From a virus: a stretch of DNA of 64,000 bases. This document shows, one piece after another, positions 30,900 to 52,591 of this stretch (position 1 is its first letter; each line of letters starts with the position of its first letter). The notes under the pieces were generated by a model. That model saw only the letters and a list, made by a program, of their open reading frames with translations. It searched no databases and had not been told where the DNA came from. The stretch covers positions 30,892 through 94,891 of IMG/VR virus record IMGVR_UViG_3300017992_000019. One strand, 5' to 3'. The position numbers and the translations under genes were made by a program.

Positions 30900-31135
30900 G
30901 ACGGGATCGACCTCCCGGCCGGGAGGGATCCAGCCGGGCACCCGGCCGGACTCCCACCGGGCCCCGGGCCGATCCAGCCGGGCGCCGGCGACCTCGAGGC
31001 CGACCTCCCGGCCGGGCCGGACTCCCACCGGCACCCACCGGCACCCACCGGCACCCACCGAGATCCACCGGCCGGATCCCTGATCTCGGGTCGAGCTCGA
31101 GGCCGACGGATCTTTTTTCGGGTTTTTTCGGGCCC
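30900..31135. repeat. GC-rich interspersed and tandem repeat region
   Basis: cgacctcccggccggg x2, gatccagccgggc x2, ggccggactcccaccgg x2, (cccaccggca)x3 plus a partial copy, ttttttcggg x2. Confidence 0.85.
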
Positions 31136-31484
31136 GGATCGCGGGTGCTCGTTGTGTGGTGCTCTGTGGCGCCTCACAGGACGGGCCGAGATCCGGGCGC
31201 AAACCCCGTGCCAGGCAGGGCCCCGGATCCCGGGAGACCGGGCGCGCCAGAATAGGCGCCTCGAGACGTCTCTCCGCGTCTCCTACGCTTGCCGGGCCGG
31301 ACACGACCCGACACCCCGGATCCCAGGCCGGAGGCCGCACAGGGCCCGCAATCGCCTCGCGCGAATTTCCCAAACAAAACGAGGCACTTACAAGAGGGTG
31401 AGCGAAAACTCGTTTTCGGTCAAGGGGTTGGCCGCTTGCAAGTATGCGTTCCGTAAGTGGAAAACGTACCGGCGAAAATAGTTG

Positions 31485-31513
31485 TTGCAATACGCGAAAC
31501 GGTGCCGTATACT
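31485..31513 (+). promoter_or_regulatory. Sigma70-type promoter
   Basis: TTGCAA-17 bp-TATACT with an A-rich upstream segment. Confidence 0.7.
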
Positions 31514-31547
31514 GTAAACATGAGGCCGGAGACCAAGACAAGCCCGA

Positions 31548-31567
31548 AACTGTGCAACGGCACAGTT
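31548..31567. promoter_or_regulatory. Dyad, putative enhancer (UAS) or operator
   Basis: AACTGTGC-aacg-GCACAGTT perfect 8-bp inverted repeat; second TGT-N8-ACA at 31597-31610. Confidence 0.55.
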
Positions 31568-31689
31568 CTTGCCCTGGATCCCCTACCTCGCAAAAATGTT
31601 CAAAAGCACACTATGAAAAATGTACTTTTTACACACCGTTTCTGCACCGCGTCACGGGCTAACTCGCTGAAACATAAGAGTTCAGGAGT

Positions 31690-31705
31690 TGGCACGCGGT
31701 TTGCA
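31690..31705 (+). promoter_or_regulatory. Sigma54 (RpoN) -24/-12 promoter
   Basis: TGGCAC-GCGGT-TTGCA, exact consensus spacing, in the AT-rich intergenic region. Confidence 0.8.
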
Positions 31706-31716
31706 GTAACATACTA

Positions 31717-32087
31717 ATAGTTGCTCATTGACAAAGGAACGGCGAAGCGAAGCAGGGACGGCCGGAAACAGTCCCACCGGGGCAACCCTCCCGGAGCTAG
31801 CAGGAAACACCGAGACCAACAAAAGCTAGTGTGACCCTACGGGGCACGGGTAGACGGGCGAAGCAAGGAGGAGCCGACAATGCCTCCGAGACCCGGGCGA
31901 CGAAACGGCCACATGACAAGCATGGGGCACGAGTAAAAAAGAGAGACGGCCGGCGAGAGTCGGCCACATGGGCGCGCACCGCGAGGCGGTCGCCGCGAGG
32001 TCGTACCTCGGCGCGCTCCTTTTGAGAGTTGAGAGATTGAAACCCTTTTGACCTTGTCGCGGACAAGGAAACCTTTTGGAGGATACC
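31717..32087 (+). ncRNA. Long structured 5' leader or candidate ncRNA
   Basis: About 370 nt without a credible gene; hairpins ggccggc-gaga-gtcggcc, accgc-gag-gcggt, cgagg-tcgta-cctcg, ccttgtc-gcg-gacaagg. Confidence 0.45.
31722..31734 (+). promoter_or_regulatory. boxA-like antitermination element
   Basis: TGCTCATTGACAA, 11/13 match to rrn boxA TGCTCTTTAACAA, just after the predicted sigma54 start. Confidence 0.5.
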
Positions 32088-33029
32088 ATGACCGCTAATA
32101 TCGAAACCCTGAAGTCTCAGACCTTCGGCGTCGAAATTGAATTCGTAGGTTGCACCCAGGAACGCGCCGCTCGCGCGGTGCACTCCGTTGTCGGCGGTCG
32201 GATCTTCGACCGCACCGTCGTTGCTCCCGACGGTCGCAAGTGGAAAGTCGTCTCCGACGGGTCGGTCGCCGGTGTCGGCGGCGAGCTCGTGACTCCGGTC
32301 CTCAAGTACGACGACATGGAAACCCTGCAAGAGGTCGTGCGGGCCATGCGTCGCGCCGGTTGCCGCAAGCACTCCTCGGCCGGTATTCACGTGCACGTCG
32401 GCGCTCGCGACATGACCGCCAAGCAGATCGTCAACGTGGTCAAGACTTGGAATCGGCAGGAACGGATCATTGTCAAGGCGCTCGACATTGAGGGTCGCAC
32501 CTACGGCACCAACGGTGCTCGCACTTGGGCCGCGTCTGCAAACCGCGACGTGATCCCCCGGATCCTCCGGTCCAAGCCTAAGACCATGAACAAGCTCGCG
32601 GCCGCTTGGTACGGCGAGAGCAACTATGAGTCGCGCACCTATCGCAAGTATGACTCGAGCCGGTATCACGCGATCAACCTGCACAACCTTTTTTATGGGT
32701 CGCACGGCACCATCGAATTTCGTTGCTTCAACTCGACCATGCACGCCGGCGAAATCCGCTCCTACGTCGTGCTCGCTCTCGCAGTCGTCGCCAAGGGTCG
32801 CAACGGCCGCGGCGCCTCGGTTGAGCAGCGCGCTTTCAATCCCGAAACCGCGAAATTCGATTTTCGCCAGTGGATGATCAAGCTCGGCATGATCGGCGCC
32901 GAGTTCAAGAATGTCCGCAAGCACCTTATGAAGCGCCTCCCGGGATCCTCCCGGTCGGCCAACACTGGCCGGACTCGCGGCGGTCACGCTCGCCGGAACA
33001 ACAACGTCGAGAATCACGCGAGCGTGTAA
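32088..33029 (+). CDS. Amidoligase (COOH-NH2 ligase type 2)
   Basis: 'TFGVEIEF', 'WKVVSDGSV', 'ELVTPVL', 'SAGIHVHVG', 'RYHAINL', 'GTIEFRCFNST'. Confidence 0.92.
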   Translation: MTANIETLKSQTFGVEIEFVGCTQERAARAVHSVVGGRIFDRTVVAPDGRKWKVVSDGSVAGVGGELVTPVLKYDDMETLQEVVRAMRRAGCRKHSSAGIHVHVGARDMTAKQIVNVVKTWNRQERIIVKALDIEGRTYGTNGARTWAASANRDVIPRILRSKPKTMNKLAAAWYGESNYESRTYRKYDSSRYHAINLHNLFYGSHGTIEFRCFNSTMHAGEIRSYVVLALAVVAKGRNGRGASVEQRAFNPETAKFDFRQWMIKLGMIGAEFKNVRKHLMKRLPGSSRSANTGRTRGGHARRNNNVENHASV

Positions 33030-33063
33030 GTCAACCTCAACCCCGGGCGCTCCGGCGCCCGGG

Positions 33064-33130
33064 TGTCGAAACGCCGGCAACGCGCCGGCGTCTATCGGGG
33101 ATCGCCTCCCGATACTGACGAGACAGGCGA
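33064..33130 (+). ncRNA. Type II hammerhead ribozyme with pseudoknot
   Basis: tgtc-GAAA-cgccggc/gccggcg-TC^-tatcggg/cccgata-CTGACGA-gaca; loop I tcgcc pairs with 3' ggcga; predicted cleavage after C33092. Confidence 0.92.
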
Positions 33131-33158
33131 CGACAAGGAAACCGAAAAGGAGGAAACC

Positions 33159-33551
33159 ATGTCTTGCAAAGTGTTCGTGTATGGCACGCTCCTCGAGGGC
33201 GAGCCGAATCACAGGGTGCTCGGCGACTCCGAGCTCCTCGGCACCGCGACGACTCGGCCGGCTTTCCGGTTTGTCGATTGCGGATACTACCCGGCCGCAC
33301 TCACCGACGGCGAAACGGCGATCGTCGGCGAGGTCTACCGGGTCAACGACGAGACGCTCGAGGATCTCGATCGTCTCGAGGGTGTTCCTCGGTTGTACCA
33401 GCGCAAGCGGATCAAGCTCGCCGACGGATCGGTTGCTTGGATCTACTTGCTCAACCCCGAGGGTTACTACGGCCGGCGCGAAATGCCGGCGATCGAGTGC
33501 GGCGACTGGCGCGCGCACCTCGACGCGAAATACGGCGCGGCCGCGTCGTGA
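33159..33551 (+). CDS. Gamma-glutamylcyclotransferase (AIG2/YtfP-like)
   Basis: 'VFVYGTLLEGEPNH', 'GEVYRV....LEDLDRLEG.P.LYQR', 'I..GDW'. Confidence 0.92.
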   Translation: MSCKVFVYGTLLEGEPNHRVLGDSELLGTATTRPAFRFVDCGYYPAALTDGETAIVGEVYRVNDETLEDLDRLEGVPRLYQRKRIKLADGSVAWIYLLNPEGYYGRREMPAIECGDWRAHLDAKYGAAAS

Positions 33552-33561
33552 GGAGGAAACC

Positions 33562-33795
33562 ATGACACCCGAAATCACAGTCGAGCAGAGACGGAAGTAC
33601 AGAGAGATCGACACCCGGAATCTCCGGGCGATCTTCATTGCCAACCCGCGCGGCGAAATGCGGCGCATCTTTCCGAAAGCGGCACGACAGGGAATCGGCG
33701 CTCGGAGCGTGAGCGAGATCGTCGTGTGCTTGATCCACGTCGGCGAGCTCAAGGTCGACACCGACTCCGGCCGGTATGAGTGGATCGGAAACTGA
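33562..33795 (+). CDS. Hypothetical small protein (winged-helix-like)
   Basis: AGGAGGAAACCATG start. Confidence 0.55.
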   Translation: MTPEITVEQRRKYREIDTRNLRAIFIANPRGEMRRIFPKAARQGIGARSVSEIVVCLIHVGELKVDTDSGRYEWIGN

Positions 33796-33810
33796 AAAGT
33801 GTTCGAGATA

Positions 33811-33893
33811 GGGGATCCCGGTATCCGGCCCGACAGGCATTGACTCCCAATGTCTCGCGTTTCCCCGACGCGACGGCCGGCGCCGGGATCCCC
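33811..33893 (+). ncRNA. Stalked double-hairpin element (family B, copy 1)
   Basis: 11-bp + 6-bp stalk enclosing ggcattg-actcc-caatgtc and tcgcgt-ttccccg-acgcga. Confidence 0.6.
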
Positions 33894-33902
33894 ACTTTAT
33901 CA

Positions 33903-33962
33903 TTTCCGAGGGAGGAATCGCAACCCTCCCCGACTTGTGTCCCGGCGATACGGGATCGGAAA
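33903..33962 (+). ncRNA. Three-way-junction motif A, copy 1
   Basis: P1 tttccga/tcggaaa; P2 gggagg/cctccc; junction CGACTTGTG; P3 tcccg/cggga. Confidence 0.75.
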
Positions 33963-33998
33963 CCCAAACAGGCAAGGAAACCTTGCAAGGAGGAAACC

Positions 33999-34325
33999 AT
34001 GCACGACTTTGACATGAGAAAAAGACGGATCCGAATGACCCTCGAGGAGACGAGGAAAAAGATCGTCGAATTCGCAAACAAGAACGACGTCGGTTTCGAC
34101 TTTCACGAGCCCGACTGTCCCAACGGAGTCAAGGCCAAGGTCCGCGGGATCTGCTTTGACAACGCGCACGGCGATCACGGCGGCGAGTACACGACCCGCA
34201 CCGGCAAGCGGCGCGGTCCTTACGAAATGATCGTGATCCTCACCGACGACGACGGCAACAAGATCCGCGTCAACCTCGCGACGCTCTTTGCGCTCGCGAC
34301 AATGGATCACCGGAACAAGTTGTAG
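33999..34325 (+). CDS. Hypothetical protein
   Basis: AAGGAGGAAACCATG start. Confidence 0.65.
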   Translation: MHDFDMRKRRIRMTLEETRKKIVEFANKNDVGFDFHEPDCPNGVKAKVRGICFDNAHGDHGGEYTTRTGKRRGPYEMIVILTDDDGNKIRVNLATLFALATMDHRNKL

Positions 34326-34334
34326 GAGGGCGCC

Positions 34335-34664
34335 ATGAGTGCACAAGCAAAATGGAGGGAGCTCGCGGTGAGGTTGAGCTCGGCGTTCGTGACCGAGTAT
34401 CGGGTGAGCGGAAAACTCGACAGGCTCGTTTCGCGCACCGCGAATTTTATCCTCGAGGATCCCGAGAACAACGAGTCGGTCGCGGCCGGGCATATCAAGA
34501 TCGAGCTCGAGGAGGATTATCGCGACATGCTCGGGTATTACAAAGACACCCAAGACGAGATCAAGCGGTTGACGATCGAGCTCGGATTCGAGCTCGCGAT
34601 CGCGGCGTTTGTGGTCTCGGTCAAGAGCGCGGCCATGCGTCGCGTCAAGGAGTGCCGGCAATGA
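34335..34664 (+). CDS. Hypothetical protein
   Basis: GGAGG SD; helical ORF. Confidence 0.6.
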   Translation: MSAQAKWRELAVRLSSAFVTEYRVSGKLDRLVSRTANFILEDPENNESVAAGHIKIELEEDYRDMLGYYKDTQDEIKRLTIELGFELAIAAFVVSVKSAAMRRVKECRQ

Positions 34665-35185
34665 AACCGAAAACCATATTACGCAAGGGCCGGCGCGACT
34701 ACGGCCGGCCGAGTCTCAACGAAACACTCAAGCTCGGCGTGTTGGTCTTTGCCTACGGGAGCAACCTCGACGTCGATCAGATGTTTCGCCGTTGTCCCGA
34801 CTCGCTCGTCGTTGGTCCGGCGTTCCTCCCGGGATACTCGCTCGAGTTTGTCGGGCACTCCCGCGGGTGGGCCGGCGCCGTCGCGAATGTCTACAAGTCG
34901 AGCCGAGGGTGTAACGTGCCGGGCATGGTCTACCGGGTGACACCGGAGGATCTCGCGCACCTCGACGCTTGCGAGGGTGTGCCGTACACATACGAGCGGG
35001 TCAAGGTCCGGGTGAAAATGTTCGACGGCAAGCGGCGCACCGTGCACGTGTATCTCCGACAGGGAGATCCCGAGCTCGGGTATCCGTCGGTCCGATACTT
35101 CCGGGCGATCTATCGCGGTTACATGCTCTGGCAGTTTCACACAAACCACATTACCCGACTGTTTCGCGCGGCCGGGTATTCATAA
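34661..35185 (+). CDS. Second gamma-glutamylcyclotransferase
   Basis: 'VFAYGSNLDVDQM.RRCP', 'LDACEGVPY.YER', 'PS..YF..I..GY'. Confidence 0.9.
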   Translation: MKPKTILRKGRRDYGRPSLNETLKLGVLVFAYGSNLDVDQMFRRCPDSLVVGPAFLPGYSLEFVGHSRGWAGAVANVYKSSRGCNVPGMVYRVTPEDLAHLDACEGVPYTYERVKVRVKMFDGKRRTVHVYLRQGDPELGYPSVRYFRAIYRGYMLWQFHTNHITRLFRAAGYS

Positions 35186-35198
35186 GAAAGGAGATTGA

Positions 35199-35257
35199 CC
35201 TCGCGGAGAGCTCGTCGCGGAGCTCTCCGACTTTTGCTCCGGCGTAGGAGCGCGAGG
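35199..35257 (+). ncRNA. Three-way-junction motif A, copy 2
   Basis: P1 cctcgcg/cgcgagg; P2 gagagctc/gagctctc; junction CGACTTTTG; P3 ctcc-ggcgta-ggag. Confidence 0.75.
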
Positions 35258-35281
35258 GAAACGAAAACCAAGGAGGGAATC

Positions 35282-35659
35282 ATGCCCGCACATTGTCAAA
35301 CGGAAATGTACGACGACCGCAACCCGCTCGCGAAGTGGCGGATCACTCACTCATGGATCGAGGAGGTCGGCGTCGTGGGAGACGAGAGAAAGAAAACCCC
35401 GATCGACGTCGTCGGCCCGAGGACTTGTCCTCCCGACGAGGACGATCACAAATTCAAGTGGACCGAGTTTCGGATCTACGACGACGACGGCGAGCTCTAC
35501 TATGAGGGGATCATGAACGAGCATTGCGAGGGGCTCGACCCGCTCGACGACTTCGGCACGCCGAATGCCGGCGCGACCGAGTTGCGGATCAAGGTCAAGG
35601 ATCAGGAGTGCCCGACGTGCAAGGGCACCGGCAAATGCGACCGTTGGGAAACGGTCTGA
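35282..35659 (+). CDS. Hypothetical protein with C-terminal CxxCxGxG
   Basis: 'FRIYDDDGELYYEG...PLDDFG.PNAGATE' conserved phage-type motif. Confidence 0.65.
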   Translation: MPAHCQTEMYDDRNPLAKWRITHSWIEEVGVVGDERKKTPIDVVGPRTCPPDEDDHKFKWTEFRIYDDDGELYYEGIMNEHCEGLDPLDDFGTPNAGATELRIKVKDQECPTCKGTGKCDRWETV

Positions 35660-35672
35660 AAGGAGATCGGTC

Positions 35673-36257
35673 ATGGTACGGTTACCGATACGGGTTCCGA
35701 CGGCCGAGGAGAGGTACAACGAAAAGCTCGAGTTGATCGCACGCTTCGCGCACGTGCCGGAGTCGGTCGTGCGCGCCTTGCATCGATCCTACATGAGAGT
35801 CGGCCGGATGAAATGCTACACCGACGGCGGGCCGGTCACGCGCAAGCATCGACGGGCCGGTCACGACAGCATGAGAAAGCGCGCGCTCGACGAGCTCCGG
35901 CGCACGATGCTCGAGATCCTCGGCGGTCCTTTCGCCGGGTCAAGCGCGTTGTGGTATCGCGGTCTCCGCGAGCAAGCTCACGCCGATCGCGCGTGGTCGT
36001 TGCTCAATGACCTCGTCGAGGCATACGACGCGCGGCGCGAGCACGACGGTTTGTGTTCCCCGGAGACGATCGCGAAAGTGATCCACGATCACATGAGCAA
36101 GGATCAGCGGCGCGGGTATTTCCGCGAGCAATTTTTCGGCGACAACGCTTTCGAGGAGATCCTCGGAAAGGTCAAGCTCCCGGACTTCTCGCACTTGCAC
36201 CTCGCCGAGATCCTCGACGCTCTCGAGAGTCTCTTGTATCCCAACGCGGCCGAGTGA
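35673..36257 (+). CDS. Hypothetical protein
   Basis: AAGGAG SD, ATG 35673. Confidence 0.6.
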   Translation: MVRLPIRVPTAEERYNEKLELIARFAHVPESVVRALHRSYMRVGRMKCYTDGGPVTRKHRRAGHDSMRKRALDELRRTMLEILGGPFAGSSALWYRGLREQAHADRAWSLLNDLVEAYDARREHDGLCSPETIAKVIHDHMSKDQRRGYFREQFFGDNAFEEILGKVKLPDFSHLHLAEILDALESLLYPNAAE

Positions 36258-36273
36258 TATCACCGGCCGGCAA

Positions 36274-36336
36274 GGTCTCGCGAGGCGCGCGTCGCGGCGC
36301 GCCTCGACTTGTGCTCCGGCGTAGGAGCGCGAGACC
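36274..36336 (+). ncRNA. Three-way-junction motif A, copy 3
   Basis: P1 ggtctcgcg/cgcgagacc; P2 aggcgcgc/gcgcgcct; junction CGACTTGTG; P3 ctcc-ggcgta-ggag. Confidence 0.75.
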
Positions 36337-36400
36337 GTCTCGCGGGTCTCCCCGGCCGCGAGACGTGCCAACCACGGGGAGGCGACTAAAGGAGGGACTC

Positions 36401-38323
36401 ATGCCACGAACAGATCCATACGAGGGACTCAACGACGCACAACGCGAGGTCGTTGCTTTCAACGAGGGCAAGATCGTCGTGTGTAGCGTTGCGGGGTCGG
36501 GCAAGACGTTGACGGTGATCCGTCGCATGTCGAGGCTCGAGCTCGACGGGCAGGATCCAAAGCGGATCGTTGCAACGACTTTCACAACCAAAGCGGCCGG
36601 CGAAATGAACGACAGGCTCGCGGCCGAGGGTTGCCCGGTACGCGGCCGGGGATCCGACGAGGGCGCCCGGGTCGGCACCTTTCACTCGGTGTCGCTTGAG
36701 GTGATCCGGGACGGTGCACCCGAGGCAAACTACAAGGTCGACGGCAAGAATCGCATGAAACTCGAGCTCAAGAAAATCCTCGGGCACACTCAAATGGATT
36801 GGAAAGGCGTCGACCTCACCGAGGTCGAATCCTGGATCGCTCACAACAAGCATGAGCTTGTGCGGCCGGAGGAGTCGAGACACCCGGAGGATCGCAGATT
36901 CGACGAGGCATACGCGCGGCATGAGGAGACCCGGGACTCTCTCGGGTTGATCACTTTCGACGACATGCCAATGCTCGCGGTTGAGTATTTGCGTTCCGAT
37001 CGCGACGCTCGCGACCGGTGGTCGACTGCTTACGATCACGTGATCGTCGACGAGGCCCAGGACGCTAACAAGGCGCAATGGGCGCTCGCCGAGATCCTCG
37101 GCGAAAACGCAAAGTCGATCATGCTCGTCGGTGACGACGATCAGTCGATCTATGAGTGGCGCGGCGCCGTGCCGGCATACCTGATCGAGTATGCGAAGCG
37201 CGCGACCGTGGTCAAGCTCGAGATCAACTACCGGTGCCGGCCGGAAATCGTCGACGCCGGCAACAAGGTGATCAAGCACAACACCGACAGGATCAAGAAA
37301 TCGGCGACGGCCGCGCGGCCGGATGCCGCGACCGTGAAATACCGACGAGTATACAACCTCGACGCCGAGGCCGAGCTCGCGCTCGAGCAGATCCGCGAGA
37401 TCGTTGCCGACGGTGTCAAGTATGGTGAGATCGCGATCCTGTATAGGACCAACGCGCAAAGCCGGGCTTTCGAGGAGGTCTTTTTGCGCGAGTCGATCCC
37501 GCACGTCGTGATCGGCGGGACCGATTTTTACGACCGCAAGGAGGTCAAGGATCTCCTCAACTACCTCAAGCTCGCAAGCAAGCTCACCGACAACAAGGCG
37601 TTTCGGGATTGCGTCAACCGGCCTTTCCGTTTCATTGGAAAGCAGACGATCGAGAAAATGCAAAGCGAGGCCGAGTCGCGCGGGATCTCAATGTGGAAAG
37701 TGTGCCGCATGGTTGCCGAGGGCGAGATCAGATTGCCGCGGGTCAATGCGTCACAACTTCGCAACCTCCGAGAGTTTCGCCGGACGGTCAAAAAAGCTCG
37801 CTCGATCCTCAAGGAGGAGAGCTCGAGGATCTCCGATGTGTTCCTCTCGGTGCTCCGCGAATCGAAATACCTGGAATGGCTCAAGCGCGACGAGGGATCC
37901 GACACGTCGGAGAATTCCCGCGAGAGCAACGTGCGAGAGTTGATCCGCACCTCGGATCGTTTCGAGACCGTCAAGGAGTTCCTCGAGTATCTCGACAACC
38001 TCGCGGCCGAAAAGCGCAAGCGGAAAAACGGAGAGACCGGAAACCTGATCCAGCTTATGACCGTGCACAAGTCAAAGGGTCTCGAGTTTCCCGTCGTGTT
38101 CGTATCGGGCGCGACCGAGTTGATCCTCCCGCACGCTCGCACGGCCAACCCGGAGGAGGAGCGCCGGTTGTATTACGTCGCGATCACCCGGGCCCGGGAT
38201 CAACTGTATGTCACCTCGCCGGCGTGTCTACTCGTCGGCGGCAAGGTGACCGAGCTCGACCCGTCGCGCTTTGTCAACGAGTCGGAGGTCAACCGCTACG
38301 CGGCCGAGGAGGCGACAGCATGA
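36401..38323 (+). CDS. uvrD: UvrD/PcrA-family SF1 helicase
   Basis: 'LNDAQREVV', 'AGSGKT', 'TFTTKAA.EM', 'VDEAQD', 'VGDDDQSIYEWRGA', 'LMTVHKSKGLEF', 'EERRLYYVAITRAR'. Confidence 0.95.
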   Translation: MPRTDPYEGLNDAQREVVAFNEGKIVVCSVAGSGKTLTVIRRMSRLELDGQDPKRIVATTFTTKAAGEMNDRLAAEGCPVRGRGSDEGARVGTFHSVSLEVIRDGAPEANYKVDGKNRMKLELKKILGHTQMDWKGVDLTEVESWIAHNKHELVRPEESRHPEDRRFDEAYARHEETRDSLGLITFDDMPMLAVEYLRSDRDARDRWSTAYDHVIVDEAQDANKAQWALAEILGENAKSIMLVGDDDQSIYEWRGAVPAYLIEYAKRATVVKLEINYRCRPEIVDAGNKVIKHNTDRIKKSATAARPDAATVKYRRVYNLDAEAELALEQIREIVADGVKYGEIAILYRTNAQSRAFEEVFLRESIPHVVIGGTDFYDRKEVKDLLNYLKLASKLTDNKAFRDCVNRPFRFIGKQTIEKMQSEAESRGISMWKVCRMVAEGEIRLPRVNASQLRNLREFRRTVKKARSILKEESSRISDVFLSVLRESKYLEWLKRDEGSDTSENSRESNVRELIRTSDRFETVKEFLEYLDNLAAEKRKRKNGETGNLIQLMTVHKSKGLEFPVVFVSGATELILPHARTANPEEERRLYYVAITRARDQLYVTSPACLLVGGKVTELDPSRFVNESEVNRYAAEEATA

Positions 38324-38730
38324 AAAAGGACAAGGAGAAAAAGGTGATCGTGATCGACAACACCGGCGAGGGCAAGGGCGGCAAGCGGCGCCGGCCGGGC
38401 AAGCGGCGCCGGCAGAAATCCGCACCGCGGCCGAGCATCGTGCCGGAGGATGGGCCCGAGTTGCACCCGCGGACTCGCAACAAGATCCTCCGGCAACTTG
38501 CGGCCGAAGCGCGCAAGGTCGGCGGATCGTGCGTCGCGTTGCGGTGCTCGCTCGACCACGTCGGCGACGTGCTTGTGCTGGCGCCTCTCCTCGAGGCGAT
38601 CGTGCGTCTCAAGGAGATCGAAAAAGACGCGGTCAAGCTCGGATACAAGCCGGACAGATTCGCGCCCGCAACCCGGGGCGCGTTTCTCTCCGGTCTGATC
38701 GAGACCCTACGGATCAAAGGGAGGAGGTGA
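38320..38730 (+). CDS. Hypothetical basic protein
   Basis: ATGA overlap; GGAGG SD. Confidence 0.55.
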   Translation: MKKDKEKKVIVIDNTGEGKGGKRRRPGKRRRQKSAPRPSIVPEDGPELHPRTRNKILRQLAAEARKVGGSCVALRCSLDHVGDVLVLAPLLEAIVRLKEIEKDAVKLGYKPDRFAPATRGAFLSGLIETLRIKGRR

Positions 38731-38903
38731 TCGTGCACGCGAGGATCAAAGCGGTGATCGGAGACGGCGAGCGACAAGCGGTTCGTTTTGAGTGCCCGCA
38801 TTGCAAGCAAGAGACCACGGTCGAGGTTCCGGTCGGGACCGACAACTACCACGGCCGGGCGGTCGTGTGCTCCTATTGCAAGCGGACTCTCTCGCTCGAT
38901 TGA
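38727..38903 (+). CDS. Small zinc-ribbon protein
   Basis: CPHC...CSYC; GTGA overlap. Confidence 0.55.
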   Translation: MIVHARIKAVIGDGERQAVRFECPHCKQETTVEVPVGTDNYHGRAVVCSYCKRTLSLD

Positions 38904-38916
38904 ATCGAAAGGAGGT

Positions 38917-38969
38917 GCACCGAGGGAGGGTGAAATCCCCTCCCCGACTTTTGCCCGAAAGGGCGGTGC
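38917..38969 (+). ncRNA. Three-way-junction motif A, copy 4
   Basis: P1 gcaccg/cggtgc; P2 gggaggg/ccctccc; junction CGACTTTTG; P3 ccc-GAAA-ggg. Confidence 0.75.
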
Positions 38970-38992
38970 CGGAAACCCGAAAGGAGGATGCT

Positions 38993-39913
38993 ATGCCTTG
39001 CATTTGCTATGTCGAAAAGAATTTCTCGGCGGGCTCGCGCGAAGTGATCGCGCAAGCAAACGAGATCGTCGAGGCGTACCAAGCACAGGATCTTGTGCTC
39101 ACCTTGCGTCAACTGTATTACCGGTTTGTCGCGAGCGATCTGATTCCCAACACCGACCGGTCGTACAAGAGACTCGGGTCGATAATCAACGACGCGAGAC
39201 TCGCCGGCGAGATCGATTGGAACGCGATCGAGGATCGCGGTCGCAACCTGATCCGGCGCTCGCATTGGAGCACACCGGGCGGGATCATTTCCTCGGCCGC
39301 GGCGTCGTATGCGATCGACAAGTGGAAAGGTCAAGACAACTACGTCGAGGTTTGGGTCGAGAAACAGGCGCTCGAGGCAATCATCGATCAGGCGTGCGAG
39401 CCTCTCGACGTCAACTGTATCGCGTGCAAGGGATACATGAGTCAATCCGAAATGTGGCGCGCGTCGATCCGTTACAGGGAAATGATCCAGGCCGACCGGA
39501 CGCCGGTGATCATTCACCTCGGCGACCACGACCCGAGCGGTCTGGACATGACCCGCGACATACAAGATCGTCTCGAGATTTTCGGCGTGCAAATGGAGGT
39601 CAACAGGATCGCGCTCAACATGGATCAAGTCGAGGAGTTTGATCCTCCTCCGAATCCCGCGAAGCTCTCCGACAGTCGCGCGGCCGGATATATCACCGAA
39701 TTCGGATCGGAGTCGTGGGAGCTCGACGCGCTCGAGCCGGCCGTGCTCCGGGATCTGATCCGCAAGACGATCCGGTCGTACCTCAACAAGAAAAAGTTCA
39801 AGGCGCGCGAGCAACGCGAGGAATCGGAACGCAACGCGCTCGAGGAGGTTTCGGATCGGTGGAACGAGGTTGTCGAATTTCTCGAGATCGAGAGCACCGA
39901 CGAGGAGGATTGA
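38993..39913 (+). CDS. Topo VI-A/Spo11-like winged-helix + TOPRIM protein
   Basis: 'TLRQLYYRFV', 'VEVWVEK', 'HLGDHDPSGLDM', 'RIAL...Q', 'WELDAL'. Confidence 0.8.
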   Translation: MPCICYVEKNFSAGSREVIAQANEIVEAYQAQDLVLTLRQLYYRFVASDLIPNTDRSYKRLGSIINDARLAGEIDWNAIEDRGRNLIRRSHWSTPGGIISSAAASYAIDKWKGQDNYVEVWVEKQALEAIIDQACEPLDVNCIACKGYMSQSEMWRASIRYREMIQADRTPVIIHLGDHDPSGLDMTRDIQDRLEIFGVQMEVNRIALNMDQVEEFDPPPNPAKLSDSRAAGYITEFGSESWELDALEPAVLRDLIRKTIRSYLNKKKFKAREQREESERNALEEVSDRWNEVVEFLEIESTDEED

Positions 39914-39917
39914 TCCA

Positions 39918-40169
39918 ATGGGCGACGGGATTTGCAATTTTTGCTTGATCCGAAATATCCGGGCGCGCGCAAAAACCAAAGGTCTCGAGGTGACCGTGCT
40001 CCCGTCTCCCGACGACGAGGAGGCGGGACTCAAGCCACCCGGGAACGATGTTTTCATGCACCCCCCGGGGATCTCGGTCAAGCTCCTCGAGGAGGATCGA
40101 CCCGACGACGGGCCCGGCGACTTTTGGGTTTGTTGGGTCTGGACGATCCCCAAGAAATGCGAATGTTGA
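39918..40169 (+). CDS. Hypothetical Cys-containing protein
   Basis: GGAGG SD; CNFC ... C-terminal CEC. Confidence 0.55.
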   Translation: MGDGICNFCLIRNIRARAKTKGLEVTVLPSPDDEEAGLKPPGNDVFMHPPGISVKLLEEDRPDDGPGDFWVCWVWTIPKKCEC

Positions 40170-40173
40170 TCTT

Positions 40174-40249
40174 GACGCCGGCGTCGGAGGCCCGACCGGG
40201 ATCCCTCCCCGCGGCCGGGTTACGCGCCCGGCGCCGGCGTCTTTTTTTT
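40174..40249 (+). terminator. Long hairpin plus U8, intrinsic terminator or attenuator
   Basis: 14-bp stem gacgccggcgtcgg/ccggcgccggcgtc followed by T8. Confidence 0.7.
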
Positions 40250-40269
40250 GGAGGGGAAAGGAGTTTCTC

Positions 40270-40512
40270 ATGTCAGTCAAAACCTACACACTCGATCCCG
40301 ATCTCAAGGGAATCGGCGGCGACCATGCCGGCAAGTTGCTCGCGAGAGCATACGACAACGGCGGCGAGCTCGAGCTCCTCAAGACCGCGGGCGACATGTT
40401 TGTCGACATGCTTCCGAGCAAGGAGGAGCTCGTCGCGATCGCGACAGGCAAGGCGATCCTTGTCGGTCACGGTCTCGAGCTCATGTATGCAGTCAACCGC
40501 GAAAGGAGTTGA
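40270..40512 (+). CDS. Hypothetical protein
   Basis: AAGGAG SD, ATG 40270. Confidence 0.55.
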   Translation: MSVKTYTLDPDLKGIGGDHAGKLLARAYDNGGELELLKTAGDMFVDMLPSKEELVAIATGKAILVGHGLELMYAVNRERS

Positions 40513-40514
40513 TC

Positions 40515-40979
40515 ATGCCTCCCCGCTTTATCCAGTACACGGCCGACGAGGTCAAGGCGAAGCTCGAGCCGGCCGGGTTCAAGGTCGTGAGACTGCACCG
40601 GTGCGGCGAGCTTGTGCTCGAGCGCGAGATCGATGATCACCCGGACGTCAAGATCCGGGTATACTCCTCGATCGCGATCCACAACGGCGACGCACGCGAA
40701 GTCGGCACCGACGCCGGCCGGGTGCTCCTGATCGATCGCAAGACCGACAAGCCGGTTTGGAAATCGAAGCGTGCACACCGCACGCAAAACTTTCTCGACG
40801 CGCTCCTCGCAAGGTGCCGCGTCGCATACAAGGCCGTCTCTACTCTCCCGCGGTGTCCCGTCTGCAAGGGATACATGGTCGAGCGATCCAAGCGCGGCGA
40901 GCGCAAGCCGTCGTTTCTCGGTTGCTTGAAATTTCCGGCGTGCCGTGGTACGCGAAACATTCCCCGGGGCCGGAGGTGA
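40515..40979 (+). CDS. Protein with C-terminal topoisomerase-type C4 zinc finger
   Basis: 'CPVCKGYMVER......FLGCLKFPACRGTR'. Confidence 0.7.
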   Translation: MPPRFIQYTADEVKAKLEPAGFKVVRLHRCGELVLEREIDDHPDVKIRVYSSIAIHNGDAREVGTDAGRVLLIDRKTDKPVWKSKRAHRTQNFLDALLARCRVAYKAVSTLPRCPVCKGYMVERSKRGERKPSFLGCLKFPACRGTRNIPRGRR

Positions 40980-40982
40980 CCA

Positions 40983-41198
40983 ATGGGTCGGATCATGAAA
41001 TGCCGACATTGCGACGCCGAGCTTGTATGCAAGGCGTGCGGCGAAAAGCAAACCCAACGCAAGAAAACCGAGACCAAGAAACTCACCGTGCACGTCGATC
41101 CGGCGCGCGACGAGGAGCTCACGGCCGAGGCCGAAAAACTCGGGATCAGTAAGTCGGAGCTTGTGCGGCGTCGACTTGCGGCCGGAGGCGAGGAGTGA
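40983..41198 (+). CDS. Zinc finger + ribbon-helix-helix (CopG-like) regulator
   Basis: CRHC..CKAC; 'KKLTVHVD.....L..EAEKLGISKSELVRR'. Confidence 0.7.
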   Translation: MGRIMKCRHCDAELVCKACGEKQTQRKKTETKKLTVHVDPARDEELTAEAEKLGISKSELVRRRLAAGGEE

Positions 41199-42763
41199 TC
41201 CCGGTTCGCACGCGCCTCGACACTCACCTTGTGCTCGACATTGACGATCTCGGTCCGCGCGCAACGAATGCACTCCGCGAGGAATTCACGCGGAGCAATC
41301 CGGCGTTTTTCAAAAAGCGACGAATGGGTCACTGGATCGGCGACACGCCGAGCAAGCTCAAGTCGTGGGCCCTCGAGGGTCGTTGGTTGATTCTCCCTCG
41401 AGGGTCTCTCGACCGGGTCGAGGAGACGCTCTCGAGCCTCGAGAGGCGCCTCGACCCGATACGCGACCGGATGCACTCATGCGAGCCGGCCGGGCTTTCC
41501 CTGCGAGCCGGGCGGGCCATGAGGCCATACCAGATCCCCGCGGTGCGGCACCTCGTTGACAACGGCCGGCCGGGCGCGATCGTCCGGGGCGGTTGCGGAT
41601 CGGGCAAGACCGTCGTGCTCCTCGGAGCGATCGCCGAGATCAATCAACCGGCGATCGTTGTCGTGCACTCGATCCCTCTCCTCAACCAATGGCGCAAAGC
41701 CGTCTCTCACTGGCTCGGTGTTATCCCGGGAGAGATCCGCTCGGGCAAGTTCAAGCTCGGGACGATCACGATCGCGACGCAAGCGAGTTTGTGGTCGCAG
41801 TACAAGAAAGGCAAGCTCGACTGGTTTGACCGATACGGCGTTCTTGTCGGCGACGAGATCCACCGATGGGCCGCGAAAACCTTTCAAGCGGTCGCGTCCG
41901 TTTTCCCGGCCGCGTATCGGATCGGTGCCTCGGCCGACGAGCGACGCAAGGATCAAATGGAGCACCTGATCTATGAGACGTTCGGATCCGAGGTCTACAA
42001 GATCAAGCGCGACGAGTGTCTCGCGGCCGGGTCTCTCCTCCCGGTGAAATTCGAGGTCGTGCCGACCGGATACTCCGACCTTGTGTATCTGTCGTCGGTC
42101 CGCACCGCTCACATTTGCGAGACGTGCAACGCCGAGCTCCGGGCCCCGGACATGCGAGCGAAAGCGAAACCCGGCCGGCTGAAATACTGCCCGGTATGTG
42201 ATCGCAACGTCGAGCCCGAGGTTCCTGATTGGGGCGGGATGATCAATCGCATGGTCGACGACGAGGAACGCAACGACTTGATCGAGGAACACGTGCACCG
42301 GGTGATCCAGGATCCCAAGACGCGGATCTTGATTCTCAACGAGCGGGTCGAGGCGTGCCGTAGTTGGGCCGCGCGTCTCGAGCTCCGCGGTGTGCCGGCC
42401 GGGCTCATGATCGGCGGGCCCGAGAATCGCAAGGAGCTCGACCGCACTATCTCCGGGATCCGCTCCGGCACGATCCGGGTTGCCGTCGGCACGTCCGTCG
42501 CCGACGAGGGTCTCGATCTCCCCGCGCTCTCGCACGTGTTTTGTTCCTGCCCGGTGCACACCCACAAGAAACGACTCAAGCAAATGATCGGACGCGCGGC
42601 CCGGCCGCATGAGGACAAGCAACACGCGACGTGCGTTTATTTTTGGGATCAAAATCTTTTCCCTCCTCAGTATGACGGCCACAACCCGGAGGCGTATCAG
42701 AAAGCAAAGGAGTCGTTTCTCCGATCGCTCAAGCGATCCGGCGACTCGCTCGTTGTGTTGTAG
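41195..42763 (+). CDS. SF2 DExH helicase (UvsW/XPB-like) with zinc-ribbon insertion
   Basis: 'MRPYQ', 'GCGSGKT', 'DEIH', 'GASA', 'DEGLDLP', 'QMIGRAAR'; CETC...CPVC insert. Confidence 0.9.
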   Translation: MIPVRTRLDTHLVLDIDDLGPRATNALREEFTRSNPAFFKKRRMGHWIGDTPSKLKSWALEGRWLILPRGSLDRVEETLSSLERRLDPIRDRMHSCEPAGLSLRAGRAMRPYQIPAVRHLVDNGRPGAIVRGGCGSGKTVVLLGAIAEINQPAIVVVHSIPLLNQWRKAVSHWLGVIPGEIRSGKFKLGTITIATQASLWSQYKKGKLDWFDRYGVLVGDEIHRWAAKTFQAVASVFPAAYRIGASADERRKDQMEHLIYETFGSEVYKIKRDECLAAGSLLPVKFEVVPTGYSDLVYLSSVRTAHICETCNAELRAPDMRAKAKPGRLKYCPVCDRNVEPEVPDWGGMINRMVDDEERNDLIEEHVHRVIQDPKTRILILNERVEACRSWAARLELRGVPAGLMIGGPENRKELDRTISGIRSGTIRVAVGTSVADEGLDLPALSHVFCSCPVHTHKKRLKQMIGRAARPHEDKQHATCVYFWDQNLFPPQYDGHNPEAYQKAKESFLRSLKRSGDSLVVL

Positions 42764-42793
42764 CAACGAGTTCCGCGCGGCCGCAATTTTCTC

Positions 42794-42822
42794 TTGACAG
42801 ACGATCCCCCTTGCCATACCGT
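42794..42822 (+). promoter_or_regulatory. Sigma70 promoter of the replication operon
   Basis: TTGACA-17 bp-TACCGT in an intergenic region. Confidence 0.7.
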
Positions 42823-42888
42823 CGCGACTCTAGGCGTCGGAGGATCTATTGCTGCACAGACCGTTGATCTTTTTTTGTGGGTAAGAAT

Positions 42889-42954
42889 CGGGTTCCCTCG
42901 GGTCTCTCGGGCCGACCGCGTTGGTCCCCCGACGCCTAAGCCCGAGGGGGCCCG
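42889..42954 (+). ncRNA. Stalked hairpin element (family B) in the replication leader
   Basis: 15-bp stalk with G-U pairs enclosing gcgttgg-tccc-ccgacgc. Confidence 0.55.
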
Positions 42955-42975
42955 TCTTTTGAAAAGAGAGGGGCA

Positions 42976-43779
42976 ATGCCGAAACGTCGTCGAGTGCCAA
43001 CGGAGCAAGGGCAACAACACGTCGTCGAGCTCGCAAACCTGATCGATCGACTGGCACTCCGAAAAGTTCCGACAGCCTCTCGCATGATAGCACTCGCCGT
43101 TTTCAATCTCTGCAAGCAAAACGGAAACTGGACCGAGACCGCAACGGATCGGATCGGTTGGTTCGCCGGCATGGGTTGGCGACAAGCCGTCCGACACATT
43201 CGGAATCTCGAGACGCTCGGGATCCTCGAGGTGGAACGCCGAGCGGGTCAAAGCATGAGGATCCGAATTCGTCCCGGTGTCATTGGTGACACCGGTCGAG
43301 AGACGGTGTCTCCCGAAACCCCTGTCACCGGTGACACCCGGGGGGTTGCGAATTCCTCGGGGGGTTATATACATAGTATAGACAAGCGTGATCAGGATCT
43401 AGATCCAAAAACAAGACATAACAGATCAACGAACCGAGCAGAGATCGAAAAGGGTGCGATCGAGGTGATCCGATTGTACCGGGTTCGATGGGGCAAGGTG
43501 TACGGATCGAGTTGCGTTGTCTCCGGCCGGGATCGTAGCAAGGCCGTCGAGCTTGTGCGAAAGCTCGGGCTCGAGGAGGTAGGTGTTAGACTGGAACGCT
43601 ATTTTGAAGATCGGGATCCGTGGCTCGTTGACAAGGCGCACTCGTTCCCGATCTTCGCCGCGAAGATCAATCAATACGTGGGACGGAAAAATGGGCAAGC
43701 GACGATCGCTCGACATGAGGACTTTGACCGAGAAGTTGAGAAGTTTGAGAAAAGCCAGCGTCGACCGCCAAAAGGGTGA
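42976..43779 (+). CDS. Replication initiator (HTH, lambda O-like organisation)
   Basis: N-terminal wHTH 'IGWFAGMGWRQAVRHIRNLETLGILEVERR', internal palindromic repeats, upstream of loader and DnaB. Confidence 0.75.
   Translation: MPKRRRVPTEQGQQHVVELANLIDRLALRKVPTASRMIALAVFNLCKQNGNWTETATDRIGWFAGMGWRQAVRHIRNLETLGILEVERRAGQSMRIRIRPGVIGDTGRETVSPETPVTGDTRGVANSSGGYIHSIDKRDQDLDPKTRHNRSTNRAEIEKGAIEVIRLYRVRWGKVYGSSCVVSGRDRSKAVELVRKLGLEEVGVRLERYFEDRDPWLVDKAHSFPIFAAKINQYVGRKNGQATIARHEDFDREVEKFEKSQRRPPKG
43274..43385. other. Putative replication origin (palindromic iterons plus AT-rich tract)
   Basis: ccggtgtca-ttgg-tgacaccgg and tgtcaccggtgaca dyads, then ttatatacatagtata. Confidence 0.65.
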
Positions 43780-52504: not shown

Positions 52505-52510
52505 AGTGGG

Positions 52511-52574
52511 CGGGCGCCGGGTCCGTCGATTTGAGACTGACCCGGTCTCGCCTCCCGGCGCGACTCGGCGCCCG
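52511..52574 (+). ncRNA. Stalked double-hairpin element (family B) before recA
   Basis: 13-bp stalk enclosing gagactg-acc-cggtctc and gcc-tccc-ggc, followed by gtttt. Confidence 0.55.
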
Positions 52575-52591
52575 GTTTTCGGAGGCAAGAA

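Follow-up and report, generated by a model that had tools for sequence, protein, structure and literature searches.

A type II hammerhead ribozyme and a repeated three-way-junction RNA at gene-unit boundaries in the early operon of an uncultured tailed phage

Between 31.5 and 43 kb, the DNA analysed here carries the rightward operon for early functions and DNA metabolism of an uncultured tailed phage of ~95 kb. The analysed stretch (the window) is the right-hand 64 kb of the 94,891-base IMG/VR virus record IMGVR_UViG_3300017992_000019, which is estimated to be 94% complete; positions on the whole record are prefixed G000. The intergenic gaps of the operon contain a genuine type II hammerhead ribozyme and four copies of a branched RNA structure, designated motif A, which is the one new object found here. 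With moderate confidence, motif A is read as a boundary element at which a 3′ end would be made, the operon transcript being cut or terminated into hairpin-protected units of one to four genes. Punctuation at the RNA level is a reasonable reading because a ribozyme, four covarying junction copies and several terminator-like hairpins are located at the boundaries of these units. An initial annotation of the sequence had proposed that expression of the operon is largely programmed in this way, in units of one to three genes. The elements at the unit boundaries are real, but a second repeated RNA family and a strongly folded leader, on which the proposal also relied, did not survive the analysis.

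Motif A occurs four times in the whole 94.9-kb record, always on the + strand and always in the early operon (Table 1). Each copy consists of a closing helix P1 of 5–7 bp, a hairpin P2 of 6–8 bp, an invariant linker and a hairpin P3 of 3–6 bp, which runs directly into the 3′ strand of P1. The linker forms a junction strand of 9 nt, while the other two junction strands comprise 0–1 nt and 0 nt. P2 can be extended to 10 bp via a CG/CG clamp, containing an A that is bulged in copies 1 and 4, pairs with a U in copy 3 and is absent from copy 2. The linker reads CGACUU(G/U)UG in all copies, while all stems vary. As DNA, the exact 9-mer CGACTTKTG is found seven times on the forward strand, and is absent from both the reverse strand and the control. 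Compensatory changes are present in all three stems, and 9 of the 19 base pairs are changed on both sides, a number that is reached in none of 500 shuffles; controls slid along the sequence also score lower. Copies 2 and 3 are 84% identical, yet their P2 hairpins have been replaced wholesale through compensatory changes. A covariance model built from the four copies (R1) scores them at 68–86 bits, whereas the next best match in the window reaches 18 bits and lies within a coding region. The shared fold and the excess of compensatory changes over the controls qualify motif A as a separate RNA family. In an Rfam search (cmscan) of positions 31000–43500 at E ≤ 10, none of the four copies was matched.

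The three-way junction is the minimum free energy (MFE) fold of copies 1, 2 and 4, with an ensemble frequency of 0.78 in copy 2, and the MFE fold of copy 3 is an alternative with two extended hairpins. The placement of the motif relative to the genes is regular. Copies 2–4 begin 13–18 nt after a stop codon, and the distance from the end of the motif to the next ATG is 23–66 nt in all four copies. Every copy has an AGGAGG-type ribosome-binding site after the fold, and in three the fold is also followed by GGAAAC; the same hairpin-AAAC-GGAGG layout is present ahead of g1 and g4. The tails of the motif read ACUUUUG or ACUUGUG. Comparable tails follow terminator-like stalks elsewhere, namely GUCUUUUUUUUG at 40240, GUCUUUUGA after the hairpin B3, and the U-run tails in two related phages (L216 and L217, described below).

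Some other assignments of motif A were considered and rejected. It is not a hammerhead variant, as it contains neither the GAA strand nor CUGANGA, and its junction layout (0–1, 9 and 0 nt) does not fit the hammerhead core. A coding function is rejected as well, as no open frame is common to the copies. No antisense partner of the linker (CAMAAGTCG) is present on the + strand of the phage. A generic three-way-junction descriptor lacking the linker constraint was uninformative in this GC-rich DNA, giving 50 matches versus 44–71 in controls. As a separate observation, a ribosome-site-like sequence, GAAAGGAG(A/G), with no usable start codon, lies just upstream of copies 2 and 4 (35186–35198 and 38904–38916); it recalls a 5′ stabiliser of the stabilising Shine-Dalgarno (STAB-SD) type.

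The gap after the first gene contains the hammerhead, as the initial annotation had indicated. It is recognized over the full length of the Rfam model, well above the gathering score (Table 1), and is a genuine type II hammerhead. The core is intact, with CUGACGA (CUGANGA), GAAA within CGAAAC, and GUC followed by U. Stem II is short, and stems III and I are fully paired except at the tip of stem I, where a single non-standard pair is marked. Loop I, AUCGCC, is complementary through UCGCC to the 3′ tail GGCGA (33126–33130), and this complementarity would allow a putative pseudoknot. From the position of the core, self-cleavage is predicted to occur after C33092. The gap as a whole (33030–33158) is strongly folded, with an MFE z-score of −3.3 to −3.7. 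Among the RNA elements of the operon, the hammerhead is the only one that belongs to a class with established activity.

The operon extends from 32.1 to 42.8 kb and contains 17 called genes (g1–g17), arranged in units of 1, 2, 3, 2, 3, 2 and 4 genes. The units are separated by gaps of 129, 203, 96, 143, 89 and 100 nt, and a gap of 212 nt follows the last unit. These gaps far exceed those of the structural operon, which mostly measure 0–36 nt, in agreement with the contrast that had been drawn between the two operons. The earlier statement that every large gap holds a strongly folded element is only partly correct. With MFE z-scores of −3.3 (hammerhead), −5.05 (B1 and copy 1 of motif A), −2.4 (copy 2) and −2.2 (copy 3), four of the seven gaps reach z ≤ −2.2, whereas the gaps with copy 4 (−0.8), the U8 terminator (−1.4) and the operon end at 42764–42975 (−0.25) do not stand out from the coding controls (−0.39 ± 0.94); on a looser count that takes in the terminator gap, five of the seven gaps fold better than these controls. 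Strong hairpins are also present in two short gaps of the structural operon (z-scores of −4.8 and −2.7).

Three hairpins that had been grouped as a second repeated family (B1, B2 and B3) each consist of a very stable GC-rich stalk around one or two small hairpins, with a U-rich run downstream. They show no BLAST similarity to one another, and B1 has no sequence relatives in the genome. Their RNAalifold consensus amounts to −5.25 kcal/mol, with an unfavourable covariation term of +1.55. The B family is therefore rejected because of the absence of shared sequence and of a supported common covarying structure; of the two repeated families initially reported, only motif A remains. The terminator annotated between g13 and g14 was recovered both by folding and by a terminator scan. 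A consensus scan detected no promoter-like site after this element, and therefore genes g14–g17 would need read-through. The B elements and the stalk-plus-U8 element are most simply read as intrinsic terminators or attenuators of graded strength.

Table 1. Positions of RNA elements, promoters and selected genes in the window (bits for motif A are scores of model R1).
Feature	Position	Strand	Details
Sigma-70-like promoter	31485–31513	+	TTGCAA-17-TATACT; consensus scan, 9/12 matches; weak evidence
Sigma-54-type box	31690–31705	+	TGGCACGCGGTTTGCA; perfect TGGCAC-N5-TTGCA; predicted start near 31716
5′ leader of operon	31716–32087	+	read from sequence
Leader open reading frame	31880–31936	+	18 codons, MPPRPGRRNGHMTSMGHE; AAGGAGG site 8 nt upstream
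Branched hairpin in leader	31972–32016	+	followed by UCCUUUUG; 35 nt after leader open reading frame
g1	32088–33029	+	Amidoligase_2, Pfam PF12224, E = 4.5e-50; first unit
GC hairpin	33042–33063	+	9 bp, directly 5′ of hammerhead; from fold of gap
Type II hammerhead	33064–33132	+	Rfam RF02276, 48.5 bits (gathering 37), E = 1.3e-7, model positions 1–66 of 66
B1	33811–33893	+	18-bp GC stalk enclosing two hairpins, then ACUUUAUCAUUU; MFE −55 kcal/mol, z = −6.8
Motif A, copy 1	33903–33962	+	67.6 bits; P1 / P2 / CGACUUGUG / P3; linker 33931–33939; follows B1, 36 nt before g4 ATG
Motif A, copy 2	35199–35257	+	85.8 bits; linker 35228–35236; 13 nt after g6 stop, 24 nt before g7 ATG
Motif A, copy 3	36276–36334	+	83.3 bits; linker 36305–36313; 18 nt after g8 stop, then 30-nt hairpin 36336–36365, then g9
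g10	38320–38730		136 aa; arginine-rich N-terminal stretch KRRRPGKRRRQK; no family match
Motif A, copy 4	38917–38969	+	68.1 bits; linker 38945–38953; 13 nt after g11 stop, 23 nt before g12 ATG
Terminator-like element	40174–40249	+	between g13 and g14; 10-bp GC stalk enclosing two hairpins, then U8; fold and terminator scan
Operon end / g18 leader	42764–42975	+	TTGACA 42805–42810; weak stem and T7 run ending 42876; B3 hairpin
B3 hairpin	42889–42954	+	followed by UCUUUUGA; core z = −2.9
B2	52505–52591		beyond early operon; z = −2.3 to −2.8; followed by UUUUCGG

The working of the operon may be envisaged as follows. Neither an RNA polymerase motif nor a sigma factor was found in the phage, so the operon is presumably transcribed by the host polymerase, probably from the sigma-70-like and the sigma-54-type promoters. 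The long transcript would be divided at the intergenic boundary elements, which would create or protect RNA ends. At the first boundary the hammerhead would cut itself at the predicted site, leaving the amidoligase message with an end in two hairpins, while the downstream message would start with a 5′-OH and the stem I hairpin. Motif A would provide a boundary element of hammerhead-like geometry, in which the GC-rich hairpin P2 is followed by the exposed U-rich CGACUUKUG strand and a further hairpin. In this model the linker would be the site of the 3′ end, generated either by leaky intrinsic termination or by an endonuclease cut. Upstream of the next start codon, P3 and P1 would remain as a folded 5′ region, which could protect the downstream end and keep the ribosome-binding site clear. 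With the B elements and the stalk-plus-U8 element contributing graded termination or attenuation, the result would be units of differing abundance and stability.

The relatives of this phage allow a comparison of the boundary elements. Two contigs were obtained from IMG/VR via two helicase homologues, namely L216 (G002, 30 kb) and L217 (G001, 71.5 kb, IMGVR_UViG_3300017971_007887). They share g9, g15, g17, g18, g19 and g20 in the same order, with 35–53% protein identity and a GC content of ~59%. Neither contains homologues of g1–g8, and the gene content upstream of the helicase is wholly different between the relatives. The hammerhead is absent from both. The expectation that the elements would be retained at the unit boundaries in related phages was thus not borne out, and different private elements are found instead. 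In L217, seven copies of UAU, a covarying hairpin of 5–7 bp with an AAUNNN loop, and CAAAACAGGGAGGUAG-N-AUG precede successive early genes (L217:5752–12798). The hairpin is fused to a conserved CAAAACAGGGAGG ribosome site, 6 nt before it, and this family is absent from both L216 and the window's phage. L216 shows repeated sigma-70 promoter boxes instead, and its gap equivalent to 42764–42975 contains a 14-bp hairpin and a strong promoter. In both relatives, hairpins of the stalk-plus-U-run type lie shortly before the helicase block. Consequently, the specific elements are not conserved, but the habit of placing a private structured signal before early genes recurs in the lineage.

One weak look-alike of motif A was detected in L217 (9518–9575, 13.8 bits). 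It is intergenic, on the gene strand, and has a three-way junction, a bulged A before P2 and a linker, CGGAGUCUG, which differs from that of motif A at four of nine bases. A hairpin of the stalk-plus-U-run type follows, and its CCUCCC loop is complementary to a GGGAGG further downstream. A relaxed descriptor gives 1–3 chance matches per 95 kb, and the resemblance of this element to motif A is no more than suggestive. Weak R1 matches at three other loci (L028, L029 and L178) fall within coding sequence and were discarded. Nor is motif A present in 2.4 Mb of phage loci anchored on UvrD or in loci that carry homologues of g12. Scans for the pattern of linker, GGAAAC and AGGAGG retrieved 19 stretches in IMG/VR and seven in GTDB (185,579 species genomes), none of which has the fold. 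No near relative of g1 was found in IMG/VR, and among the metagenome matches listed the only close one (L108) has a different context. The helicase protein is recorded on seven contigs, and protein relatives are known at 45–56% identity. No host gene is named at the two ends of G001 in a list of open reading frames (ORFs) of ≥200 aa, which were not searched against a family library.

Several of these observations weigh against a role of motif A in making RNA ends. Apart from the weak L217 look-alike, the motif is absent from both relatives, and its function cannot be argued from conservation, because motif A and the hammerhead are both absent from the relatives and the scanned collections. The U-tracts are short, with four U residues or UUGUG, and copy 2, in which P2 and the tail were flagged, is the sole copy of the four to pass the terminator scan. 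Family searches recognised no ribonuclease among the operon proteins. The retention of P1 and P3 is explained neither by a terminator nor by a cleavage site alone. Finally, the stems are devoid of G-U pairs, so that the pairing fixes neither the strand nor whether the motif acts as RNA or DNA.

A less likely alternative is that motif A is a protein-binding site, the helices of which present CGACUUKUG to a phage or host factor. Such a factor might repress or activate translation of the next gene or, in the manner of nut and put sites, load onto RNA polymerase and carry transcription through the following terminator-like hairpins. The combination of an invariant 9-nt linker with variable stems is typical of a structural scaffold that is recognised in a sequence-specific manner, and the location of the copies just ahead of ribosome-binding sites, with terminator-like elements downstream, is in line with this reading. 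The arginine-rich N-terminus of g10 and a boxA-like 13-mer after the sigma-54 start (31722–31734) point in the same direction. However, no RNA-binding or antiterminator family was detected among the operon proteins, and g10 is encoded downstream of three of the four copies. The boxA-like sequence, which had been annotated as a boxA, matches at 11 of 13 positions; four such matches occur genome-wide and a reversed control is equally frequent at three mismatches, so that it cannot be distinguished from chance. In addition, B1 lies upstream rather than downstream of copy 1, and the linker is different (CGGAGUCUG) in the one possible homologue from L217.

Somewhat less credible is the possibility that motif A is a duplicated intergenic cassette which insulates translation only, makes no RNA end and has spread recently with gene cassettes. 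A stable fold, an A-rich spacer and a strong ribosome-binding site would then shield the start region from the neighbouring coding RNA. The near identity of copies 2 and 3 is in line with recent spread, as is the complete difference in upstream gene content among the relatives, which cassette turnover predicts. The recurrence of GGAAAC and AGGAGG-type sites after the copies, the like layout before g1 and g4, and the fusion of the L217 hairpin to its ribosome site also suit an insulator. Nevertheless, an insulator explains neither the invariant U-rich linker nor the wholesale compensatory replacement of P2 between near-identical copies, and many genes of the operon are translated without motif A.

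A bolder reading is that motif A represents either a new small self-cleaving ribozyme class or the dedicated substrate of an undescribed phage or host endoribonuclease. The lineage would then keep the principle but exchange the punctuation marks, which are the hammerhead, the three-way junction and the AAUNNN-loop hairpin; we regard this as doubtful. The ribozyme by itself, taking over at four boundaries the task that the hammerhead has at the first, is improbable. It would fit with the slot type, which is the same as that of the genuine hammerhead in the same operon, with a junction fold carrying invariant junction nucleotides, and with the lack of any Rfam match even at E ≤ 10; moreover, new classes have been found via conserved folds near known ribozymes (PMC5737381). 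On the other hand, some nine invariant nucleotides on one junction strand, with 0–1 nt on the others, would make a very small core compared with known classes, and four copies in one genome provide no depth of conservation. In addition, the possible L217 homologue alters four of the nine linker bases, the linker of copy 3 can pair into extended hairpins, and most motifs of this kind that were tested by others did not cleave (PMC5737381). Least probable is that motif A acts as DNA and that its RNA fold is incidental, for instance as a recombination or cassette-boundary site, as a site for a phage-specific promoter, or as a hairpin extruded from single-stranded DNA: its purely Watson-Crick stems would indeed fold equally on either strand or as DNA, but searches of the phage gave neither an RNA polymerase motif nor a sigma factor, all copies are oriented with the genes in a fixed relation to stop codons and ribosome-binding sites, and the compensatory changes maintain three helices of a branched fold that duplex DNA sites do not need.

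The claim that the operon as a whole is punctuated by RNA elements is plausible and has clear precedents. In prophages, hammerheads flank single genes or short blocks; polycistronic constructs of ~2 kb with hammerheads were cut in vitro, and processing into operon- or gene-length mRNAs was proposed (Perreault et al. 2011; PMC3088659). The organisation is for this reason not the undescribed system that it was initially taken for, since hammerheads that process long phage transcripts were already proposed in 2011 (PMC3088659). The present operon resembles those prophage clusters (PMC3088659) in having, in an operon gap, a type II hammerhead whose loop I and 3′ tail would form a pseudoknot, and for which the same role is proposed. 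Unlike the clusters, it contains a single hammerhead, and the other boundaries are occupied by motif A and terminator-like hairpins, with no further known ribozymes. The ribozymes twister-sister, pistol and hatchet were found by searching near known ribozymes (PMC5737381). Punctuating phage operons with RNA elements is hence a known organisation, and it is the repeated motif A that is new.

Three other systems offer instructive comparisons. The early mRNA of phage T7 is cut at intergenic RNase III sites (Dunn and Studier). Both systems have repeated structured RNAs in the gaps of an early operon, which the host polymerase transcribes in T7 and presumably here as well; cleavage that leaves a 3′ hairpin on the upstream message and yields separately stable mRNAs, and a terminator at the end of the operon, would likewise be common to both. 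The T7 sites, however, are nearly continuous duplexes of ~20 bp (about two helical turns) with an internal loop, whereas motif A consists of three short helices of 3–10 bp and a 9-nt single strand, and judged from this fold it is not an obvious RNase III substrate. Repetitive extragenic palindromic (REP) elements are, like motif A, repeated GC-rich palindromic elements between cistrons, with stems that vary by compensatory change. REP and intercistronic hairpins, together with leaky terminators (e.g. in malEFG), set differential stability and polarity within operons. Unlike REP elements, which are host-wide simple hairpins in hundreds of copies, motif A is branched, has an invariant linker and is restricted to four gaps of one phage operon. 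The lambda nut site comprises boxA and boxB, and the HK022 put site two adjacent stem-loops. These sites are likewise cis-acting structured RNAs downstream of early promoters in operons with terminators, but they occur once per operon arm near the promoter; in the present operon neither an N-like nor a Nus-recruiting protein was identified, and the match to boxA lacks significance.

An operon with a hammerhead and an unrelated repeated fold in equivalent slots provides a compact test case for why phages place self-cleaving ribozymes between genes. If motif A makes RNA ends, selection would act on the slot rather than on ribozyme chemistry, and the motif, for now a candidate new processing signal, would be a new one, possibly a ribozyme. 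If it makes no RNA ends, it would exemplify a signal for translation or antitermination that is private to a phage. The elements are short and portable, and L217 with its own seven-copy cassette offers a natural comparison.

Upstream of the operon, the annotated pair of promoters is retained: the sigma-70-like site is a weak match, and the sigma-54-type box is perfect and conforms to the −24 GG/−12 GC consensus (TGGCAC-N5-TTGCW), which makes it a predicted promoter. The record contains three perfect TGGCAC-N5-TTGCA boxes, all on the + strand and each ahead of a gene block (the third at G000:4540–4555), as against ~0.1 expected by chance when estimated from the information content of the pattern. 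A block of ~150 nt that holds the operon's box (31548–31705) is 73% identical to a promoter region at about G000:2171–2317, and upstream boxes, GCAAAATGTGCAA..CACACC, are conserved beside the sigma-54 boxes. Sigma-54-dependent promoters are unusual in phages, and no sigma-54 activator (Sigma54_activat, PF00158) is encoded by this one. The leader that follows is not strongly folded, contrary to the earlier description, as its MFE z-score is 0.0 overall and +0.4, −0.9 and 0.0 for successive thirds. Its ORF and the branched hairpin ending in UCCUUUUG make leader-peptide attenuation possible.

Almost all genes of the record are on the + strand. In family searches of the operon proteins, g2 and g6 are GGACT/AIG2-like, g9 is a UvrD-type helicase, g11 and g15 are zinc-ribbon proteins, g12 matches the PHROG 'DNA topoisomerase', and g17 is a superfamily 2 (SF2) helicase. 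The 71-aa ribbon-helix-helix (RHH) protein described before was confirmed as g16. Nine small proteins have no functional assignment, g7 matching only phrog_12268 (function unknown). From its arginine-rich stretch, g10 could be considered as a possible RNA-binding partner of motif A. Downstream of the operon is a replication module (g18, a DnaC-like ATPase and DnaB), while the terminase, the portal and a MuF-like protein are encoded upstream. The terminase reaches no more than 32.5% identity to its counterpart in any cultured phage, and the phage consequently represents an uncharacterised lineage; megablast against cultured phages gave no match. As stated earlier, neither a CI-like repressor nor a sigma factor is encoded in the window, but the phage does have a helix-turn-helix regulator outside it, an HTH_3 (Cro/CI-type) protein of ~108 aa at G000:7140–7466.

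Some further features were observed. Outside the window, a 1101-aa protein (G000:17709–21014; L197:709–4014) contains, besides a 2H phosphoesterase domain (2_5_RNA_ligase2), an XkdF-type protease and a Dam-type N6-adenine methyltransferase. Substrates of 2H enzymes are 2′,3′-cyclic phosphates, the end chemistry left by hammerheads, and also cyclic-nucleotide defence signals. ARAGORN calls a 95-nt tRNA-Pro(CGG) on the minus strand at G000:21718–21812 (L197:4718–4812), which is doubtful, as it scores below the gathering threshold of the Rfam tRNA model. In L216, ~22 tandem copies of an 18-nt unit, GGTGACAGGGTAAAACTC, lie shortly before the helicase gene (L216:9015–9590), apparently within an open frame. 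In the window, a poorly coding stretch of ~1.6 kb between the structural operon and the early promoters contains about four tandem copies of the 10-mer CCCACCGGCA (31024–31073), with T-runs downstream of them at 31108–31130.

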